The translations under genes were made by a program, and so were the position numbers. Shown in pieces: positions 546 to 47,881 of a stretch of 47,927 nucleotides of DNA. The DNA lies in the IMG/VR virus record IMGVR_UViG_3300032272_000022, positions 1 to 47,927 of that record. The stretch is one strand, 5' to 3'. Below the pieces are notes generated by a model that was not told the origin of the DNA, ran no database searches, and saw only the letters and a list, made by a program, of their open reading frames with translations. This stretch comes from a virus. Its lineage: Duplodnaviria > Caudoviricetes. The stretch's first letter is position 1. The number at the start of each line of letters is the position of its first letter.

Positions 546-902
546 ATGCAGTTATCGAAAAAAATAATTCTAATCTCAGCACTTATTGCTACCAAAGTTA
601 TCGTTAGCGCCTGCGACCTCGGTAGCACCGATAGTTCAAGTTCTGGTAGTAGTTCATCTGGCAGTTCCGGTAGTTCCAGTAGCAGTTTCACATTGAAACC
701 AAAAACCCATAACACGAGTTACGCTAACTGTAGCGAAACTCAGTCCGCAACAATATGTCAGGGTGCAGATGTCAGATATGATCAATATGAAGAATGCATG
801 AATCTTCACGACGGTTCCCCAGACTGTGATGGCTATTACACACCTAATTACACGGAAACAGCCAAATTATGCATGAGTACTGTTGCCGCAATAGGCTGTT
901 AA
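546..902 (+). CDS. Putative lipoprotein with Ser/Gly linker and Cys-rich domain (host)
   Basis: Signal peptide ending in the lipobox-like VSAC, a poly-Ser/Gly tract, several Cys, GGGAG RBS upstream. Confidence 0.7.
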   Translation: MQLSKKIILISALIATKVIVSACDLGSTDSSSSGSSSSGSSGSSSSSFTLKPKTHNTSYANCSETQSATICQGADVRYDQYEECMNLHDGSPDCDGYYTPNYTETAKLCMSTVAAIGC

Positions 903-924
903 ACACAATTTACCGTAAATAGAT

Positions 925-1746
925 TTGTCAGTTACTAAATCACGCTGGTTTGTTATTGGCGCAATCTTCATTCAACTTTGTGTTTACTTTATTGGATACC
1001 AGCACGGAGTCGGGAATTTCAACCCAACTCCTGCTGGCATCGAACCTAAAGTTAATGACATAACGCCATCAGTTTGTGATTGTATCGCGACAGAATCTAA
1101 ATCACATATTGCAGATTCGACGGGCAATACAAATAAATCTCTACTGGAAAAAATCGCCCTGCTTCAAAACCAATACCAGGCCCTCCAGGAAAAACAGAAC
1201 CTCGACGAATTTAGTAGTGAGCAAAAACAGGAACTCCCAAATTTACTTAAGCAGACCTTAGATCAGTTGCCAATCGATATGATAGCGTCTCGAATCGAAA
1301 GATATATCGAAATACCTCAAGAGACTTTCGAACGAATGAACGATCAACGAGCTTTTGTGAATCGACTAGCTGATGTAGCGATGGAAGGGATTATTACTGA
1401 ATCAGACGAAGACAGTATAGCCTTGTTGGGACCGATCAGCTTCTCCGACCAATACCAGGGAGGTGCAATTAAAAATATTTTTTCAAATAAGGAGGTTGCA
1501 GTTTTTGCCGGTTTTGATACAGCAACATTCGACAAACCCGTTGTCCTGGTTAAATGGTATCGAACCGAAGACAACAAAGTATTTATTTTTAAACAAATGC
1601 CAATTAGCCCAATAAATACCAACTATATTTGGTTAACGGACCAAAACGGTCTGGAAGCAGGTCAATATAATGTCGATATCTACGATGTTAGCTCACAAAT
1701 GAACTTACTATCTCGTGGTTCGTATCAGGTATTAAATTATGAATAA
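925..1746 (+). CDS. Hypothetical membrane-anchored protein, paralogue of 3044-3793
   Basis: N-terminal TM helix and coiled coil; C-terminal motifs RLAxVAMxGI, VKWY, TNYIW, GQYxVxxY and LLSxG shared with 3044-3793. Confidence 0.75.
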   Translation: MSVTKSRWFVIGAIFIQLCVYFIGYQHGVGNFNPTPAGIEPKVNDITPSVCDCIATESKSHIADSTGNTNKSLLEKIALLQNQYQALQEKQNLDEFSSEQKQELPNLLKQTLDQLPIDMIASRIERYIEIPQETFERMNDQRAFVNRLADVAMEGIITESDEDSIALLGPISFSDQYQGGAIKNIFSNKEVAVFAGFDTATFDKPVVLVKWYRTEDNKVFIFKQMPISPINTNYIWLTDQNGLEAGQYNVDIYDVSSQMNLLSRGSYQVLNYE

Positions 1747-3034
1747 GCTATTTACAGCTTTGTGTTTGGCTATGTTTTCTATTTCCGTAAGCGCAACCGA
1801 TTGGTCAAAAAGACTAAAGCCAACAACAGATGTCGAGACTAAAGACGAAGAGATCTGGTCAACATTCGATGTGAATTGTGAAAGCCCTTTTGTACAAATA
1901 AAAACCAAGAAATATAAACCTGTCAAAAAACAGAGCACTAACATCGAACACGCACCACAAACCGAATGTTTAGGCGGTATATTTCAGAAGGCTATATATC
2001 ATAAACGTGGCCCAGAAGATCCTATTGCTTACAAAACTATCGATGGTAAACCTTATCTAGAATTTTATTTCTCAGCTCCGGGAAAATACATACAAAAAAA
2101 TGTCCCTCCAAAAAAGTATGCTGTAAAACTCGCTGTCCATGACTTTAAAGGGAAAGGTAAATACCCAATTTATCACGAGAATGAAACCTTCAAACCGATG
2201 CTGGACAAGGACCATCCGATCACACTGTATAATAATTTAATCCCGATGATCAATTATAGTAAAGGAAGGCACATTCCTGTCATCATGGGTAATTTTGCTG
2301 TATTTCGAGATGCTGAACTTATTAAGCTAACCCGGAAGGAAAGAGACAGCGGGCAATATCTCGATGATAAACATAGAGAAAAAAACGTCTCCTATACGTA
2401 TACCAGTGGTGATCGTATTTATGGTAAATACGCTTTAAATGACATGCAAAAAGTAATGTCAGCAAACAAAAAACTCGGCGAAATTGTAATCACAGATATC
2501 AATAAACAGGGCATTATATCGGGTAGCTTTAAAGTTAGGATGTTGCGCGAAACTTGCAACGATATATTAATGATAGCCGATTGCCAGATAAGTAGTGTTT
2601 TAATAAAAGGCAAATTTGATGCCGCTGAGTTCAAACCGAACAAGGATTACATCAAGAAAGGACTTTTAAAACCTAAGATGAAGATGAAGATGAAATTGAA
2701 ACCCAAACTGGGTTCAAATAATAGTGGCGTCAAACCCAAACTTCGCACACCATCATCATCTGAAACTATTTTTGATCCCCCTCAACCAAGACTGCATAAA
2801 CCATTACTTGGGTCCCAATGTAAGAGAAGCATTGCTAATGCCTGTAAGTCGGCGGAAACAGCATTTCAAAGTTATCTATCCTGTCTAAACAAGTACAATT
2901 TCAAGAAAAACGATGCGCAAGACACCGCACGCAAAAACCTTAAAAAATGTTATGCGATATATGAAATTGAATACACCAGGAAATCAAAACAGTGTCGCAA
3001 ACTATTTGTTGAAGACGCGACTTGCATTAAGTAA
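1739..3034 (+). CDS. Hypothetical secreted Lys-rich protein
   Basis: Signal peptide (…ISVSA), 431-aa ORF overlapping the previous gene, Cys-rich C-terminus. Confidence 0.75.
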   Translation: MNKLFTALCLAMFSISVSATDWSKRLKPTTDVETKDEEIWSTFDVNCESPFVQIKTKKYKPVKKQSTNIEHAPQTECLGGIFQKAIYHKRGPEDPIAYKTIDGKPYLEFYFSAPGKYIQKNVPPKKYAVKLAVHDFKGKGKYPIYHENETFKPMLDKDHPITLYNNLIPMINYSKGRHIPVIMGNFAVFRDAELIKLTRKERDSGQYLDDKHREKNVSYTYTSGDRIYGKYALNDMQKVMSANKKLGEIVITDINKQGIISGSFKVRMLRETCNDILMIADCQISSVLIKGKFDAAEFKPNKDYIKKGLLKPKMKMKMKLKPKLGSNNSGVKPKLRTPSSSETIFDPPQPRLHKPLLGSQCKRSIANACKSAETAFQSYLSCLNKYNFKKNDAQDTARKNLKKCYAIYEIEYTRKSKQCRKLFVEDATCIK

Positions 3035-3043
3035 ATTGAGTCC

Positions 3044-3793
3044 GTGATATCTAAACCTATCTACATCAAAAGTGGCTACATTGTAGCTATAATCGGCCTC
3101 CTGATTGCAATTGCGATCGTGCAAACAGACTCTGTTACCTTGATTAATAAAGTGTCTGCAACGCACATCGAGGCTGCCGAAGAAAACCAGTCGATAATAT
3201 CCATCGTCGATGCTATTGCTAGTTTGTATCTATTACTGCCTGTTTTCACCGAACCAGAAAAACGAGCCCTCTTGAGCCTCAAAGAAAGAAGAGCCAGCGA
3301 GCAGAAATTTCTTTTGCTACTCAATAGACTACCGGTAGATAAGATTATCGACAAAATGATAGATCTCGATCTAGTCACAACAGAACAACTTTCAAAAATC
3401 GAGCACAAAAGACCTTACATACATCGACTGGCTAAAGTCGCCATGAACGGCATCATGACACCTGAAATACCGGAGATTGCAAAACATGGCAAAGTCCATT
3501 TCAAGTCTGCTCTAGAGGATCCGAGGGCAAATACTTTTGAGGCAACGAACATGGCCATATATGCATTTTTTGATTCAAGTGCGTATCAGGATGAAAATAT
3601 CTTCGTAAAGTGGTATGAGTCTAATCAGGGGAGAATGGCGCTTTTTAAACAGTTTCCTATCACGCAAGAGAATACAAACTATATCTGGATACACAATTCC
3701 GGAGGCTTCACAAAAGGTCAGTATCAAGTTGAAGTTTACCGAATCAACGAAAGTTTCGATTTATTGTCGAAAGGCAATTTCGAGGTTCGGTAA
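3044..3793 (+). CDS. Hypothetical membrane-anchored protein, paralogue of 925-1746
   Basis: N-terminal TM helix and the shared C-terminal beta-rich domain motifs. Confidence 0.75.
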   Translation: MISKPIYIKSGYIVAIIGLLIAIAIVQTDSVTLINKVSATHIEAAEENQSIISIVDAIASLYLLLPVFTEPEKRALLSLKERRASEQKFLLLLNRLPVDKIIDKMIDLDLVTTEQLSKIEHKRPYIHRLAKVAMNGIMTPEIPEIAKHGKVHFKSALEDPRANTFEATNMAIYAFFDSSAYQDENIFVKWYESNQGRMALFKQFPITQENTNYIWIHNSGGFTKGQYQVEVYRINESFDLLSKGNFEVR

Positions 3794-3797
3794 AAGA

Positions 3798-4277
3798 CTA
3801 TATCCAGCGACTATAAAAAAGAACTGAAATAATAAGAAATACAATTCCGACCAAATTACCCAGATCGGCGATGTTAAAAATCCCTGATTGAATAAAATCA
3901 AGATCAATAACAATAAAGTCAGTTACAGCACCCTGCCTGGCCCTTTCCAGTAAATTTGACAACCCTCCCCCCACAACCAGGCCCCAGGCCAGGGCAAATA
4001 TTACGTGACTAAACCCTTTATAGATAAGTAAACCAAATAATCCAGCCAGGAGTACCGCAACGAGTACGATACCAATATACAAAAAGGTTGATGCTTCCAG
4101 GCCGGAGCCAACACCCATCATTAAACCCTTATTTTGATAGAGATCAAAATTTACAATATCCAGAACATTCTTTGAATAAAGATCAGGTCGAAATTTCCAG
4201 AACCAGTTCTTTGTGATTGAATCGACAAGAATACTGAGCAGTAGAAATACGATAAAGGGGTAACGATGACTTTGCAT
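3798..4277 (-). CDS. lspA: Lipoprotein signal peptidase (signal peptidase II)
   Basis: Motifs NKG, GGLSNLLER…GAVTDFI and IFNIAD; multiple TM helices; ATG at 4277 (ORF track start is TTG at 4289). Confidence 0.9.
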   Translation of the reverse strand: MQSHRYPFIVFLLLSILVDSITKNWFWKFRPDLYSKNVLDIVNFDLYQNKGLMMGVGSGLEASTFLYIGIVLVAVLLAGLFGLLIYKGFSHVIFALAWGLVVGGGLSNLLERARQGAVTDFIVIDLDFIQSGIFNIADLGNLVGIVFLIISVLFYSRWI

Positions 4278-4288
4278 AAGACATGACA

Positions 4289-4342
4289 AAAATTGGTCGG
4301 GACGGCAGGATTTGAACCTGCGACCACCTGCCCCCCAGGCAG
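4289..4342. repeat. Left att core (duplicated 3' half of tRNA-Pro)
   Basis: AAAATTGGTCGGGACGGCAGGATTTGAACCTGCGACCACCTGCCCCCCAGGCAG, identical to 47800-47853. Confidence 0.97.
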
Positions 4343-42923: not shown

Positions 42924-43232
42924 ATGGCTGATCAATCCGCAATAAGAAAATACCGCCCATCAAACGGCACCGAAGGTGAAATATTCACGGCCGTTCACTG
43001 CTTTCAATGCGAACGCGATAATTATGATCTTGAAACAGGCGAAGGTGAACCCTGCGAAATACTTGGGCGCACAATGGTCCACTCGCGCGACGATGACGAA
43101 TACCCCAGCGAATGGACATTTGACCAGGAAGGCAACCCAACCTGCACAGCATTCATCACAAAAGACGAACCAGTACCGATCCGATGCACCAGGACGAATG
43201 ACATGTTTGGAGAATTCGATGGTCGACAATAA
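42924..43232 (+). CDS. Hypothetical Cys-containing phage protein
   Basis: PSNGTEG…CxxC…C…PxC; GGGAG RBS. Confidence 0.65.
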   Translation: MADQSAIRKYRPSNGTEGEIFTAVHCFQCERDNYDLETGEGEPCEILGRTMVHSRDDDEYPSEWTFDQEGNPTCTAFITKDEPVPIRCTRTNDMFGEFDGRQ

Positions 43233-43752
43233 AAGCAAAGCCGAAGCAATCATGAATTTTGTAGACTCGATGGTAGGCGCATTTGATGCGGGATACGTCG
43301 ACAGAAATCATTGCACCCTATCTGAGATTCACACAGTCGCAAAGCATCATGTTAAAGATACGTATGGAGTGGATCAGCCAAATGCTGTGGAAAAATACGG
43401 CGAAAAAATGGCTAAAGATATTGGGCTTAATTCCCCGCGTCCAGAAAACTATCCGCATGCGAGAACCTGCCGCCGCGTTGTTTGTGCCGCAATTCGATCA
43501 AGTGACGGCGACGTATTAATCGGCATCCGGCACTACAGCAAAGACATGCACCAGCAAATCAAAGCACGACACGACGGTAAAAAATTTTTACGCCGACACG
43601 ATCCAGACCAGGGCTTTGTCGATCAATACGGCGTGTACATGACCCGTGAAGAAGCCTTTGAGGTAGCCAAAGCTGCCAACCAGGTAATATTTGTAGAGCA
43701 CTGTGGCAAGGGGCTTGACGGAATGAAGCTGTACAGCGAAGGGCTGTATTGA
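43219..43752 (+). CDS. Hypothetical phage protein
   Basis: GGAG RBS before ATG 43219; VVCAAIR…RH…QGFVDQYG…LYSEGLY. Confidence 0.7.
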   Translation: MVDNKSKAEAIMNFVDSMVGAFDAGYVDRNHCTLSEIHTVAKHHVKDTYGVDQPNAVEKYGEKMAKDIGLNSPRPENYPHARTCRRVVCAAIRSSDGDVLIGIRHYSKDMHQQIKARHDGKKFLRRHDPDQGFVDQYGVYMTREEAFEVAKAANQVIFVEHCGKGLDGMKLYSEGLY

Positions 43753-43809
43753 GCATAACCCCAAGCTTTGTGGAGAGCGAAGCGATTCCAAAACAGCGTA
43801 TTGTTATGT
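43753..43809 (-). repeat. attC site 1 (57 bp)
   Basis: Minus strand: ACATAAC-AATAC-GCT[G]TTTTGGA…TCCACAAAGC-TTGGG-GTTATGC; near-identical to 45694-45751. Confidence 0.85.
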
Positions 43810-43835
43810 TTTTATTAATTTTAAACAGGTGAAAT

Positions 43836-44051
43836 ATGGAGCTTACAAACGAGCATATAGAAATATTAAAACACACTGCTAAGAACAGGTACTTTTGCGG
43901 CGACAGTAAAGAAATGCAAGAACTTTGTAATTTTAAAATGATGGTTTACGTGGGAAAAAAACCATTCGTGCCAGACCCATATTTTGAATTAATGAATGAC
44001 GGTAAAACATTTCTCGAAGCCCTTAACGAGCTTGAATGTGCCGAAACATAA
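43836..44051 (+). CDS. Cassette A hypothetical protein (winged-helix-like)
   Basis: AGGTG RBS; stop TAA lies in ACATAAC. Confidence 0.7.
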   Translation: MELTNEHIEILKHTAKNRYFCGDSKEMQELCNFKMMVYVGKKPFVPDPYFELMNDGKTFLEALNELECAET

Positions 44052-44172
44052 CCCTGGCTATTTGCTGCCACCGAAACGAAAACGAGGACTTAAATTATGA
44101 CCGATAAAACTGAGACCACTGCCCCCAAATCAATTACAGGTTTAGGTGGTCAGAAACATAGCGTTGTTAAGT
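44046..44172 (-). repeat. attC site 2 (127 bp) containing RBS and ATG of 44097-44288
   Basis: Arms GCTATTTGCTGCCACCGAAAC / GTTTAGGTGGTCAGAAACATAGC with two bulged bases. Confidence 0.85.
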
Positions 44173-44288
44173 GCGTTATTTGTAACGACACTGGCTGGAA
44201 CCACGGCGCTCAGTGCCACCCCAGCAAAGCCCATCCCAAAGGGTGGAGGACTATTAAATGTGATTGCGCGGCAGGTAAAAAATCATGA
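44097..44288 (+). CDS. Cassette B small Zn-ribbon-like protein
   Basis: GAGGA RBS; CVICNDTG…CDC. Confidence 0.6.
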   Translation: MTDKTETTAPKSITGLGGQKHSVVKCVICNDTGWNHGAQCHPSKAHPKGWRTIKCDCAAGKKS

Positions 44289-44470
44289 TAACGATAACTT
44301 TTCACGGGTGGATAATTCCACTGATAATAACTGTGTGCGGGTTTAGTGCAGCATATTTGTTGACACGCAATGCTGGTGGTATAGCTGGGCCATTAGCGCC
44401 GGTTATAGGTTACGGCGTGGCGCTGGTTTTAGCTTTAATAGTGTGGATGATTTATGGATTAGCCGCTTAA
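44285..44470 (+). CDS. Cassette B small two-TM membrane protein
   Basis: ATGA coupling; two hydrophobic helices; stop lies in GCTTAAC. Confidence 0.65.
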   Translation: MITITFHGWIIPLIITVCGFSAAYLLTRNAGGIAGPLAPVIGYGVALVLALIVWMIYGLAA

Positions 44471-44583
44471 CCCTAAATTTTGCAGTGCATAAACGAACTT
44501 AAATAGGCGATGAAATGAGCAAGAACACTGAACAAAAAACCGAGCACCCTGGCAAAGTGTCTGCCAACAATGATTTGTTATGC
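44465..44583 (-). repeat. attC site 3 (119 bp) containing the start of 44515-44943
   Basis: Minus strand: GCATAAC-AAATC-ATT[G]TTG[G]CAG…CTGCAAAAT-TTAGG-GTTAAGC. Confidence 0.8.
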
Positions 44584-44943
44584 GCTTATTATCCTTTGCT
44601 ACATCATTCGCTGGGAATCACCGACCCTGAACAATTTGATAGTTACAGAAATTATTTTGAGGCCAGCGGCGGACACAGTGATTTACCAGGATTATTAAAA
44701 CTCTGCGAAGCTGGGTTAATGGTAGAAGGAAATTCCCCTAGTTTTTGCCATGAAGATTCCCGCACTTTTTATGTAACCCAAGAAGGGCGGGCAATGGCTT
44801 TTGAGACTAGGCCGAAACCGCCGAAACTGACAAGAGGTCAGCGACGATACAGAGCATATTTAAAATCAGAGGCAGACGAAAGTTTTGGTGACTGGTTGAA
44901 AGACCCATATTGGGATGACTACAGGCGTCAGCTAGGCGCATAA
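44515..44943 (+). CDS. Cassette C hypothetical phage protein
   Basis: HSLG…YRNYF…LTRGQRRYRAYL…FGDWL; stop lies in GCATAAC. Confidence 0.75.
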   Translation: MSKNTEQKTEHPGKVSANNDLLCAYYPLLHHSLGITDPEQFDSYRNYFEASGGHSDLPGLLKLCEAGLMVEGNSPSFCHEDSRTFYVTQEGRAMAFETRPKPPKLTRGQRRYRAYLKSEADESFGDWLKDPYWDDYRRQLGA

Positions 44944-45060
44944 CCCAAAGCTATGCGGCGCATACGACTAACTTAACGAGACTTTGAACCATGAACGAAG
45001 ACCAGAACCAGAAACAAGCACTGAACGCAAAGCGTCCGATTCATGAGCGCTTTGTTAGCT
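44938..45060 (-). repeat. attC site 4 (123 bp) containing the start of 44991-45290
   Basis: Minus strand: AGCTAAC-AAAGC-GCT[C]ATG…CATAGC-TTTGG-GTTATGC. Confidence 0.8.
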
Positions 45061-45290
45061 GTGGGGAATACGATAAAAAAACTTTTGACAAAATCAATAA
45101 AGTTATAAAAACAAAGATTGCAGAACTTAAAGACGATTACGAAAAACTAAAAGCAGTCGATTCTCTTATCGGTGAAGATGCCACGAAGGAGAAAAAACAC
45201 GACTTATTGAATTCTGTATTTGTGCTACAAGAGGTCCAATCAGAATCTATGGATATTTTATTTACACCCGTGAAAAGCGTGAGCAGCTAA
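44991..45290 (+). CDS. Cassette D hypothetical protein
   Basis: 99 aa; stop lies in AGCTAAC. Confidence 0.65.
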   Translation: MNEDQNQKQALNAKRPIHERFVSCGEYDKKTFDKINKVIKTKIAELKDDYEKLKAVDSLIGEDATKEKKHDLLNSVFVLQEVQSESMDILFTPVKSVSS

Positions 45291-45412
45291 CCCCCGCGTT
45301 AATTTGACGCCGAAACGAAACTGAGGATTTAACAAAATGGCAGAAATTGAAGAGTACCTAAAAGACAAAAAGGCCGCTGAAAAAGGCGGTCAAATTGAAC
45401 CTGTTGTTATGT
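45285..45412 (-). repeat. attC site 5 (128 bp) containing RBS and ATG of 45337-45699
   Basis: Minus strand: ACATAAC-AACAG-GTT[C]AATTTGAC[C]GCC…GGCGTCAAATTAAC-GCGGGG-GTTAGCT. Confidence 0.9.
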
Positions 45413-45699
45413 GGCGTGGTGGTGACGGGATGACTAAGCCAGTAAAGGTTTCTTGCCCTGATGGGTTATGGCCCGAATACGATTCCGACGGGGTTCAAAT
45501 ATTTGAAAACACTCACTTCAAAACCGAAGATCAAGCATGGAAAAGTATCGAAGAAAGTGTTCTAGCTGGGATATCGTTAGCCGGTCGTGAGGTCGAGTTT
45601 AGGGAGAAGCAACTGGCAGAATCGAAGGATTGGGCGGCACAGGCTGCAAAAGATTTTGCTTTGTTTCGAACAAATTTGAGAAATAAGAACGACACATAA
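45337..45699 (+). CDS. Cassette E hypothetical protein
   Basis: GAGGA RBS; stop lies in ACATAAC. Confidence 0.7.
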   Translation: MAEIEEYLKDKKAAEKGGQIEPVVMWRGGDGMTKPVKVSCPDGLWPEYDSDGVQIFENTHFKTEDQAWKSIEESVLAGISLAGREVEFREKQLAESKDWAAQAAKDFALFRTNLRNKNDT

Positions 45700-45751
45700 C
45701 CCCATAGCTTTGTGGAGAGCGAAGCGATTCCAAAACAGCGTATTGTTATGC
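45694..45751 (-). repeat. attC site 6 (58 bp)
   Basis: Core AGCTTTGTGGAGAGCGAAGCGATTCCAAAACAGCGTATTGTTATG identical to site 1. Confidence 0.85.
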
Positions 45752-45767
45752 GCAGGAGTGATTAACG

Positions 45768-45989
45768 ATGCCAGATCGTGATAAAGATTTAGAACAGCTA
45801 CAGGCCATGAATCCTACACAATGGCGCTATGTGAATTGGCTTGAGGAAGGTGGAGGGGAAGTGCAGCGGGTGCATGATGTTTATGTCTTGTTTGAAATTC
45901 CACGGTACGGAGGGAAGCCTCAATATGTTGGGACATATCACCGAGATGATCTACATAAGCTAATAGACATGGCGTACTCATGGACGTGA
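45768..45989 (+). CDS. Cassette F hypothetical protein
   Basis: AGGAG RBS; LFEIPRYGGKP…AYSWT. Confidence 0.7.
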   Translation: MPDRDKDLEQLQAMNPTQWRYVNWLEEGGGEVQRVHDVYVLFEIPRYGGKPQYVGTYHRDDLHKLIDMAYSWT

Positions 45990-45990
45990 C

Positions 45991-46010
45991 GCATAACACT
46001 AGATTATCAA
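45991..46010 (-). other. Putative attI-like primary insertion site of the array
   Basis: Minus strand TGATAAT-CTAGT-GTTATGC: simple-site geometry and no attC hairpin. Confidence 0.55.
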
Positions 46011-46035
46011 GACCTTGCAAGGTACCGGTTAAAAA

Positions 46036-46341
46036 ATGTACAGAAAAACAGCTAAATCATTAAAGTACGAAAACATGCGCAAAGCCAAGGAACGTAAGCG
46101 CCTGGAGTCACCTGCGCCTGAACCAATCATCGATCTACCCGATCTGCGCAAGACCATCGTAATAACAAATTTCGATTTTGGTGAAGAAGTGCATAGGTTC
46201 GAGCTAATGCAAACCGGGCGCATCGATCAATATAAGGTGTTGGTAGATGGAGAACTATGGAAGCACCGCATCGGACTATCCGGGATTCTGGCAGGTGTCA
46301 GAAAATCCATGCCTCCAGTGAGATCAATCTATGCGAATTAA
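46036..46341 (+). CDS. Hypothetical protein
   Basis: 101-aa ORF in the early operon. Confidence 0.65.
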   Translation: MYRKTAKSLKYENMRKAKERKRLESPAPEPIIDLPDLRKTIVITNFDFGEEVHRFELMQTGRIDQYKVLVDGELWKHRIGLSGILAGVRKSMPPVRSIYAN

Positions 46342-46493: not shown

Positions 46494-46709
46494 ATGTTTT
46501 TATCGCCCACCGATATCGCAGAACTAACCAACGCAAAGCGCAAAGATCGACAGATCCAGGCGTTGCAAGACATGCGAATTCGGTTTGCAAAGGCGATCGA
46601 CGGCAGGCCAAAAGTTTTACAAGCAGAGGTTGAACGGGTTATGCTCGGCGGGCCGATCGTCGATCGAGCGACAGAACAGCAACCCAGGTTCGACAAAATA
46701 CATGGCTAA
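46494..46709 (+). CDS. Putative excisionase (DUF4224-like)
   Basis: MFLSPTDIAELT…QIQAL…DGRPKV; overlaps the integrase start. Confidence 0.8.
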   Translation: MFLSPTDIAELTNAKRKDRQIQALQDMRIRFAKAIDGRPKVLQAEVERVMLGGPIVDRATEQQPRFDKIHG

Positions 46710-47715
46710 ACGCGATCTTCCGCCACGGATGTACAAAAAATACCACGTTTATTATTACGTGGTGCGCGTCGATGGTAAAAAAAAATGGATCAGACTATCG
46801 AACGACTACCAGGAAGCGCTGTTTAAATACGCCGAGCTCGAAGGCAACCCGCACAACACCGGCTTTATTAAAGCGGCAATTGACAAATACCGGGTCGAAA
46901 TCCTGCCCAGCAAAGCACCCAAAACTAGACGCGAGCGCCAATATTTGCTCGACAGACTCAAGCGAGTCTTCGGCGAAATGCGCTATGAAGCGCTACAACC
47001 AAAGCATCTACAAGAATACCTGCAAACCCGAACCGACAAAAAAGGCAAAACCGTCCCGGTAGCAGCGAACCGAGAAATCAAGCTACTATCAAGCATATTC
47101 CGACATTGCATCGTGTGGGGTTTCCACGACTCAAACCCCTGCGAACACGTTTTCTATCACCCTGAGAAAGGCCGTGACAGGTACATCACCGACGCAGAAC
47201 TGGACCTCTTAAGAGATAACGCAGACGAAATGACCAGGGCGATAATCGATATCGCATACTGCACAGGTATGCGCAAAAGCGACATCCTGCAAATCAAAAG
47301 CGCCGATGCTGCACCCGAAATGCTCTATAACAAGCAGAACAAGACCGGCAAACAGCAACTATTTTTGTACAAACCAAAGCTAAAAGCAGCCATCGAGTCC
47401 GCGAAGAAGCTTAAAAAAACGCGACGCACCAAAGACAACGCCCACCCGTTGACGCCCTATTTGTTTATCAACTCCAAAGGTGGCGTCATATCCGAGACCG
47501 GATTCAACTCGACATGGCGACGATTAAAAACAAAAACCGGTTTAGTCGGCGACAGGAATTTAACGTTCCACGATATACGCGCCAAAGCACTCACAGACGC
47601 GAAAAACAAACACGGACTTGAGTACGCCCAGGCACTCGGCGGGCACGAAAACGCAAGCCAAACCGAGCACTACATCAAGTCAAAATCCACTGATAAAATT
47701 GACTCGCTAGAGTGA
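46702..47715 (+). CDS. int: Phage tyrosine integrase
   Basis: Catalytic R (GMRKSD), HxxR (FHDIR), H (GGHEN) and Y (TEHY); adjacent to att. Confidence 0.95.
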   Translation: MAKRDLPPRMYKKYHVYYYVVRVDGKKKWIRLSNDYQEALFKYAELEGNPHNTGFIKAAIDKYRVEILPSKAPKTRRERQYLLDRLKRVFGEMRYEALQPKHLQEYLQTRTDKKGKTVPVAANREIKLLSSIFRHCIVWGFHDSNPCEHVFYHPEKGRDRYITDAELDLLRDNADEMTRAIIDIAYCTGMRKSDILQIKSADAAPEMLYNKQNKTGKQQLFLYKPKLKAAIESAKKLKKTRRTKDNAHPLTPYLFINSKGGVISETGFNSTWRRLKTKTGLVGDRNLTFHDIRAKALTDAKNKHGLEYAQALGGHENASQTEHYIKSKSTDKIDSLE

Positions 47716-47799: not shown

Positions 47800-47853
47800 A
47801 AAATTGGTCGGGACGGCAGGATTTGAACCTGCGACCACCTGCCCCCCAGGCAG
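47800..47853. repeat. Right att core
   Basis: Identical to 4289-4342. Confidence 0.97.
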
Positions 47854-47881
47854 GTACGCTACCAGGCTGCGCTACGCCCCG
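47805..47881 (-). tRNA. tRNA-Pro (GGG)
   Basis: 77-nt cloverleaf CGGGGCG…CCTGC-CTGGGGG-GCAGG…GGTTCAAATCC…CCA. Confidence 0.97.

Follow-up and report, generated by a model that had tools for sequence, protein, structure and literature searches.

An attC cassette array of reversed polarity headed by an attI-like site in a prophage that encodes no IntI

Six cassettes and a terminal site at the end of a prophage early region

The 47,927-nt stretch of DNA analysed here (IMG/VR record IMGVR_UViG_3300032272_000022, positions 1 to 47,927; hereafter the window, at its full length) is an integrated temperate phage, since the attachment core is repeated at 47800 and 4289. Distal in a plus-strand run of early-type genes (ParB-like, DNA methyltransferase and single-stranded DNA-binding protein) there is an array of six imperfect hairpins that resemble the attC sites of integrons. 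The hairpins belong to six cassettes with seven open reading frames (ORFs), cassette 2 having two, and the array ends at a short attI-like site (the docking site). The elements of the array are as follows (aa, amino acids; bit scores refer to the covariance model described below).

43753..43809, minus strand: attC 1, 57 bp, crossover TAA|C between 43758 and 43759, 39 bits
43759-44051, plus strand: cassette 1, ORF 43836..44051 (71 aa), no family, stop codon formed by the TAA of the next crossover
44046..44172, minus strand: attC 2, 127 bp, GAGGA inside and likewise, for the ORF that follows, the predicted ATG (44097), missed by the covariance model
44052-44470, plus strand: cassette 2, ORF 1 at 44097-44288 (63 aa, two CxxC-type cysteine pairs, no family) and ORF 2 at 44285-44470 (61 aa, hydrophobic, no family)
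44465..44583, minus strand: attC 3, 119 bp, predicted ATG 44515 inside, 19.3 bits (weak)
44471-44943, plus strand: cassette 3, ORF 44515..44943 (142 aa), phage family phrog_13561/21796
44938..45060, minus strand: attC 4, 123 bp, predicted ATG 44991 inside, 28.3 bits
44944-45290, plus strand: cassette 4, ORF 44991..45290 (99 aa), no family
45285..45412, minus strand: attC 5, 128 bp, L box 7/7, GAGGA and predicted ATG 45337 inside, 17.9 bits (weak)
45291-45699, plus strand: cassette 5, ORF 45337..45699 (120 aa), no family
45694..45751, minus strand: attC 6, 58 bp, 39.1 bits
45700-45996, plus strand: cassette 6, ORF 45768..45989 (73 aa)
45991..46023, minus strand: attI-like docking site, R box 45991-45997, crossover 45996|45997, 5-nt spacer, L box 46003-46009
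46016-46023, minus strand: conserved TGCAAGGT arm of the docking site, located in the window within the palindrome ACCTTGCAAGGT
46036..46341, plus strand: 101-aa gene, without a family or fold match, in other phages closely linked to the docking site but not required beside it

The crossover lies at the left end of each hairpin; therefore a cassette consists of a hairpin plus the gene downstream (C-hairpin-gene-TAA). This unit explains why the stop codon is the crossover TAA in five of six cassettes and why, in all four long hairpins, the cassette's own gene is predicted to begin inside the hairpin, which covers its first 20-23 codons; the start codons are in two different phases relative to the core. 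Start codons inside hairpins would be incoherent if the hairpins had moved with the upstream gene. Sites attC 1 and attC 6 (identical at 48 of 50 nt, 96%) are one attC joined to two different genes, and each core tail fits its own gene end. By integron logic, cassette 6 would be the latest insertion.

An earlier note on this DNA had described six hairpins with complementary ends, separating seven small ORFs. All 12 end motifs quoted in it were recovered at their positions and its six hairpin sizes were correct; its division of the region is refined here to six cassettes, and the seventh TAAC (45994) has no partner arm and forms no hairpin.

The ORF preceding attC 1 (43219-43752, phrog_839) ends TGAGCATAA|C as the cassettes do, and may be an old cassette without a hairpin. 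Contigs of one sequencing run match attC 1 at 43765 and 43807 and then continue into other sequence, a hint that the same attC adjoins other genes in that community. The exact 21-nt pattern taken from attC 1 and attC 6 had no match in viral contigs.

Anatomy and polarity of the attC sites

Read on the minus strand, each element opens with R'' (7 nt), a 5-nt spacer starting with AA and L'' (8 nt, position 4 being the extra base); after a variable central part come L' (7 nt), a spacer of 5-6 nt and R' (GTTRRRY), as in the attC layout given in the text of PMC5027507. With the extra base set aside, L'' and L' pair at 6/7 or 7/7 positions in all six hairpins, and the sites have the RYYYAAC/GTTRRRY core pair with the AAC crossover. 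A rule-based attC detector recovered the six sites on the minus strand and had no match on the plus strand. Under strict settings it kept four of the six sites, with nothing further in 47.9 kb, and produced no match in 300 dinucleotide shuffles of the array region. All six sites end GG|GTT, an ending present in just 3 of 245 sites elsewhere, which suggests a single source pool.

A covariance model was trained on 65 short sites, taken from related phages and not from the window, and applied to the window, to two class 1 integrons and to an integron region of Pseudoalteromonas. The model found six attC sites in the two class 1 integrons (22-51 bits; adjoining aac(6')-Ib in both integrons, blaVIM-4, aadA16, arr-3 and dfrA27), all on the same strand as the genes. 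Five of the six window sites were found as well (18-39 bits), on the strand opposite to the genes; site 2 was missed, and attC 3 and attC 5 had weak E values (0.087 and 0.17). The minus-strand attC identity given in the earlier note agrees with the detector and, at five of the six sites (two of them weakly), with the model.

The extra base at L'' position 4 is a mark of polarity: it was seen in 155 sites read against the genes vs 2 read with the genes, the corresponding numbers of sites without an extra base being 4 and 5, and of the positions tried for this base, number 4 gave the peak. Together with the class 1 calibration, this test ruled out the plus-strand polarity, in which the crossover would lie at the GTTA end. 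Pairing in the L helix is at 94%, and each of its 6 pairs has changes on both sides, a result that is partly circular as sites were chosen for L pairing. All seven ORFs in the window are antisense to attC. Among 240 distinct cassettes, 171 were classified as antisense and 17 as sense by rule (by eye only 2 of the latter look like real genes). The window's own record (L133), identical contexts and, for the cassette set, units longer than 1,300 nt were left out before counting.

The same model, applied to phages of Qi et al., gave the conventional orientation for TJE1 and the reversed one for ctTUS972 (MW202573). The reversed array in MW202573 (L157, 2069-3738) is a cluster of attC sites lacking integron integrase (CALIN); the text of the paper makes no remark on the reversal. 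A further array of ~88-bp attC sites (L146 and L152, G021:C94), with most long ORFs on the opposite strand, was observed in a contig of a genome labelled archaeal. Another locus of this genome (L023) is 99.99% identical to viral record L009, and L146 and L152 may be mis-binned phage contigs.

The footprint of circular cassettes and the turnover of arrays

Matching of the ends within a cassette rather than within a linear site, as described in the earlier note, was confirmed in all six units. The complementary runs between the GTTA end of the hairpin and the closing TAAC of its own gene are 9, 6, 9, 8, 8 and 8 nt long; those within the linear hairpin are all shorter (6, 4, 4, 4, 4 and 6 nt). 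Correspondingly, the R boxes pair at 7/7 positions in five of the modelled circles and at 6/7 in one, compared with 4-6/7 in the linear forms.

The set of 240 cassettes was analysed at core positions beyond those required for detection. At positions 5-7, a perfect match was found within the cassette in 197/240 vs 32/240 in the linear site; the mean match was 2.77 of 3, and 1.25 after permutation. Extended to positions 5-9, the numbers were 124 within the cassette vs 6 in the linear site. Where the core is not GTTA (50 cassettes), the base at position 4 matched within the cassette in 37 and in the linear site in 9. Cassettes adjoining the docking site had the core match in 48 of 58 cases.

Near-identical phages differ in whole sets of cassettes; the earlier note had proposed to look for variable content in related prophages. 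In the pair L040 and L041, the arrays have 5 and 10 cassettes, respectively, yet the identity of the flanks is 99.7% over 1,583 bp (left) and 99.0% over 6,334 bp (right). All these cassettes are different, with just short attC-level similarity. The alignment ends 1 nt beyond the first crossover and resumes 5 nt ahead of the terminal crossover. Three more pairs (L065/L067, L019/L140 and L060/L061) have near-identical right flanks and different cassettes on the left, with divergence at or within ~23 nt of the site. The 218 cassette proteins fall into 209 families; whole cassettes recur rarely, at different ranks in different phages and with 77-80% identity. We conclude that the cassette traffic at TAA|C sites is almost certainly site-specific.

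A conserved terminal site

Three of four relatives of the 101-aa gene are preceded by the same ~30 bp. A DNA pattern for this docking site, which places no demand on the upstream sequence, matched 19 viral loci, most of them with a same-polarity attC array upstream. The backbones following these loci are unrelated and include tyrosine or serine integrases, terminase genes or late genes (names judged by eye). A second pattern, for a short spacer class, matched 17 loci; five were from new records, and four of these five had attC upstream. Only two matches to the docking-site pattern were found in a collection of genome contigs.

About 79-80 distinct contexts were pooled from viral, metagenome and genome collections. 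They form two spacer classes, with 58 and 20 contexts, and TGCAAG is almost invariant. Metagenome matches that failed a tighter site filter were dropped; the 15 viewed were one duplicate of L014, two from the L007 prophage and 12 chance-like ones. A second, chance-like match in L063 was kept just in the pooled attC totals of the 80 contexts. Upstream of these 80 sites, 169 attC had the same polarity vs 4 opposite in 264 kb; downstream, 10 had the same polarity vs 1 opposite in 310 kb. A profile rescan found 242 attC vs 5 opposite, and none in shuffled DNA. Among contexts with at least 3 kb of upstream sequence, 44 of 47 had at least one attC (up to 11). A hairpin is possible at just 1 of 79 terminal sites.

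The array is thus headed by a conserved non-hairpin R-spacer-L site, the arrangement of an attI simple site as judged by sequence and comparison. Two candidate chromosomal attI sites beside intI, TAA|CAGTTGATTAGACGGAGCG (L194) and TAA|CCATTGATTATCAGG (L178), share the first ~18 nt of the docking-site pattern (its R-spacer-L part). We also considered the docking site as a copy of a common host attI, an origin that the arm does not support: the TGCAAGGT arm was not found in 40 regions upstream of genuine intI genes (L126 was left out of this comparison alone). We read the terminal site as a simple site of attI type whose accessory arm is specific to phages, and it is probably the preferred entry point for cassettes.

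Two docking sites occur together in one 37-kb record (L113 and L131). Their arrays point in opposite directions and have cassettes in common, 95-99% identical but in different ranks. At L013, a variant terminal-like site lies upstream of the main site and five more attC lie downstream of it.

The 100-aa gene beside the docking site

The 101-aa gene of the window belongs to a family of ~100-aa proteins with 697 relatives, some labelled Gammaproteobacteria, Chromatiales or Sulfuricella. Of 54 loci found by protein alignment alone (eight of which repeat records seen earlier), 51 carry the docking site within 200 nt; the misses are one locus without upstream DNA and two with diverged sites. There was one other match to the site in 1.04 million strand-bases. 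The gene was not adjacent to the site in 18 of 37 pattern-selected contexts and was absent from three near-complete phages. The protein is at most accessory, because it is absent beside these 18 sites.

The predicted fold (a helix, a four-stranded sheet and a helix) has a confident predicted local distance difference test score, 84.5. No Pfam or PHROGs family was matched; among solved chains the best Z was 4.1, Foldseek gave no match at E <= 0.001, and there was no usable Atlas feature match. These fold searches gave no support to a role as a recombinase or arm-binding domain, although a missing match is not an exclusion. Neither the protein nor the array region matched any of 50,697 GenBank phage records, hence no cultured example was found.

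Candidates for the recombinase

With at least two attC sites on one strand and no intI nearby, the array in the window is a CALIN; a complete integron has intI beside the array, and none is present here. No match to TIGR02249 (IntI) was detected in the window, and the phage integrase was the sole recombinase found there, in agreement with the earlier note. Likewise, none of 52 viral records had IntI over the cut-off. Thirteen of 18 records that are at least 90% complete had no match to PF00589 (tyrosine recombinase) at all, including records with 5-10 attC and the record of L041 with its 10 cassettes; in those phages the enzyme must therefore come from outside.

The extrahelical-base anatomy of attC is read by the I2 domain of IntI, according to the texts of PMC4792948 and PMC5027507, and the geometry described above would accordingly point to IntI. 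The text of PMC9892861 reports that IntI1 recombined five of six phage attC sites. Three cellular genomes carry the site or the 100-aa gene, and one of them (G022) has IntI over the cut-off. The genome with L024, where genes in the host orientation are present at the site or in the array, encodes IntI. Taken together, the enzyme is most probably a genuine IntI supplied in trans.

Cargo of the cassettes

Gene-sense ORFs of 135 cassettes (the longest of the 171, the window left out) were scanned against PHROGs, and 36 had matches. This bears out the phage-type cargo claimed in the earlier note; in the window, cassette 3 alone has a family, and its protein has 42% identical relatives in other prophages without attC sites. 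Thirteen of the 36 annotated cassettes carry DNA-modification genes. The matches include nine DNA methyltransferases, three phosphoadenosine phosphosulfate (PAPS)-reductase-like genes and one Mom-like gene. Others encode Thg1, a DHH phosphoesterase and an acetyltransferase. Genes in the conventional host orientation were seen at the site or in the array at L024 (twice), L118, L052 and L070, and would fit uptake from host pools.

Prophage setting

The 101-aa gene is followed by the excisionase and then by the lambdoid-type integrase, a pair that is not conserved across the phages bearing the docking site and array.

46494-46709, plus strand: excisionase, library matches
46702-47715, plus strand: lysogeny integrase, phrog_1 and PF00589, distinct from IntI
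47800..47853, no strand assigned: prophage attachment core, the 3' part of the tRNA at 47808-47881, with a second copy from 4289

A scan of the window with Rfam matched the tRNA alone, with no RNA family at the hairpins, and in a sigma-70 scan promoter-like and terminator-like sites were not in excess.

Two other regions of the window were recorded. Between 31913 and 33932 an AT-rich repeat of ~77 nt (CGGCAC...CATAAGTCAATATT) is present in three copies (31913, 32732 and 33807), setting apart single genes (216 aa, an HNH nuclease of 286 aa and 298 aa) with a repressor adjoining; it is possibly a second, non-attC cassette array or an operator array. The DNA outside the prophage, 546-4289, has four ORFs (546-3790) without an NCBIfam family, one of them with 4 homologs, and a weak lipoprotein-signal-peptidase-like ORF. 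This segment may be another island at the same tRNA.

Discussion

We interpret the array as a phage-borne integron-type platform: a back-to-front attC array with a conserved attI-like site and no IntI of its own, in which early genes are likely swapped by a host IntI acting in trans. We assign this interpretation a probability of about 0.7.

By the established integron mechanism, the gene-sense strand, being the attC bottom strand, would fold when single-stranded, and IntI would cut it at AA|C. A reaction of attC x attC would release a cassette circle, and a reaction of attC x docking site would insert the circle at the distal end of the early operon. Cassette genes would then face the docking site and be read from the phage early transcript, an orientation antisense to the Pc promoter of a host integron; therefore phage and host would share the recombinase but have largely separate cassette pools, with phage cassettes expected to be silent behind the host Pc, as host cassettes would be within the phage operon. 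For long sites, a ribosome site and a start codon are predicted in the hairpin loop, and the cassette would thereby be self-contained for translation. More speculatively, the cargo of DNA-modification genes hints at counter-defence, and both IntI and the prophage could be raised by SOS induction.

Several observations weigh against this interpretation. Neither recombination nor an excised circle has been observed; the excised circles proposed in the earlier note did not appear, as contigs of one sequencing run with window DNA (probably its source) gave no circle joints. The unconstrained minimum-energy fold of the four long sites lacks the full attC hairpin, for which constraints were needed, and at sites 3-5 the stability of the gene-sense strand does not exceed that of the other strand. 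Of the 240 cassettes, 52 received no call from the orientation classifier, and no attC was detected in three of the 47 contexts that extend 3 kb or more upstream. In the search for the arm upstream of intI, the best score in the 40 regions was 14 vs at least 31 for phage sites. As to the cellular genomes, G021 and G217 carry the site or the gene and no IntI (all three genomes are possibly incomplete), and the co-occurrence of site and IntI in G022 is weak, because IntI is frequent in that phylum anyway (72/201).

Some of these facts would suit real cassettes moved by an enzyme other than a host IntI, i.e. a different tyrosine recombinase, which could be Xer-like or come from a helper phage or plasmid, and which the 100-aa protein might assist by binding the TGCAAGGT arm. 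The arm is phage-specific, the gene is tightly linked to the site (51/54), and IntI is missing from two of the three bacterial or archaeal genomes that have the platform or its gene. We consider such an enzyme unlikely, since the extrahelical bases are what the I2 domain of IntI reads (texts of PMC4792948 and PMC5027507), the sites are interchangeable with class 1 attC in the covariance model, and 13 of 18 near-complete phages encode no tyrosine recombinase; the 100-aa gene is itself missing from 18 of 37 contexts and three near-complete phages and has no recombinase-like fold match. Doubtful to much the same degree, if not slightly more, is the idea that the terminal site is a frozen secondary (attG-type) insertion point or an attC remnant, conserved as a translation or regulatory signal of the 100-aa gene, the arrays being ordinary CALINs shuffled by attC x attC without a dedicated entry site. 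IntI inserts at any GWT (as stated in the text of 10.1101/2022.09.11.507474), GGAG and ATG flank the arm in many contexts, and L013 has further attC downstream of its site. However, the site, including an AAC fixed at 21-22 nt from the arm and an L-box-like stretch, is kept in 18 contexts without the gene; its left half changes with the last cassette (48/58 match); it is similar to the chromosomal attI candidates; and it is where arrays end even though the backbones are unrelated.

It is also conceivable that the array is a passively captured piece of a host integron, as captured chromosomal integron fragments exist in Vibrio prophages (text of PMC9892861), or that the hairpins serve as RNA signals or are repeats that homologous recombination has rearranged. 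The G+C content of the array (0.43 vs 0.51 in the early backbone) and the 96% identity of sites 1 and 6 are in line with such origins. Still, the genes are antisense to attC, unlike those of class 1 integrons and TJE1 under the same model, and the cargo has its matches in phage families; most sites have diverged too far to recombine by homology, and no Rfam family or excess of terminator-like sites accompanies the hairpins. The within-cassette core match, a footprint of recombination, and the breakpoints at TAA|C largely refute these origins, which we regard as very improbable.

Phage CALINs have been described previously (Qi et al. 2023, PMC9892861), so the novelty claimed in the earlier note was overstated: according to the text of that paper, integrase-less phage attC arrays exist, carry DNA methyltransferases and are recombined by IntI1, and its ctTUS972 has the same reversed polarity under our model. 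The paper counted 17 CALINs in 10,705 genomes and regarded them as rare, possibly off-target acquisitions. Its text mentions no conserved phage entry site, systematic reversal or array swaps, although its figures or annotation may show reversal. The terminal site was not found in TJE1 or in the first 30 kb of ctTUS972. The more novel part is the conserved attI-like site family at the array end, which the earlier note missed; in our searches of the open literature (subscription papers and bioRxiv supplements being outside their scope) we found no description of a conserved phage docking site or of whole-array swaps.

With integrons, as presented in the texts of Cury et al. (2016, PMC4889954) and Nivina et al. 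(2016, PMC5027507), the system has in common the attC anatomy, the AA|C crossover, the circular footprint, an array anchored at one simple site and very diverse single-gene cassettes. It differs in having no intI and in genes that run toward the entry site, not away from it. Expression would be from the phage early operon, with the newest cassette the most promoter-distal, and long sites are predicted to contain a start codon. The docking site has the R box, 4-5-nt spacer and L box of attI1 and attG (texts of PMC4792948 and 10.1101/2022.09.11.507474) and, by eye, an accessory element ~20-27 nt from the crossover, in a position like that of the attI1 direct-repeat arm. Its arm has no sequence likeness to the attI1 arm, and compared with attG the site is far more conserved than GWT and is located in phage genomes. 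The array in the window is real, integron-type and more organised than a stray CALIN.

We lean slightly towards a broader view, in which the attI-like site, often with the 100-aa protein, is a widespread portable module placed at the early operon end of many unrelated temperate phages and hijacking host IntI. The same view includes a separate, mirror-image cassette pool, rich in DNA-modification genes, in which turnover is rapid enough to leave 99%-identical phages without a cassette in common. Bacteria have been described as keeping anti-phage defences in integrons (10.1101/2024.07.02.601686 and 10.1101/2024.07.02.601719), and phages appear to exploit the recombinase of these stores; if the portable-module view is true, the bacterial bank of anti-phage defences is also a shuffler of phage counter-defences. 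A conserved 30-bp entry site working without a cognate integrase would be a new natural substrate of IntI. For the question of cassette origin, the mirror-image cassettes and their terminal core matches add a second and independent set of data, and the arrays are an enriched source of candidate anti-defence genes. Finally, the platform offers a concrete mechanism that could explain why phage early operons contain small unknown genes in mosaic strings.

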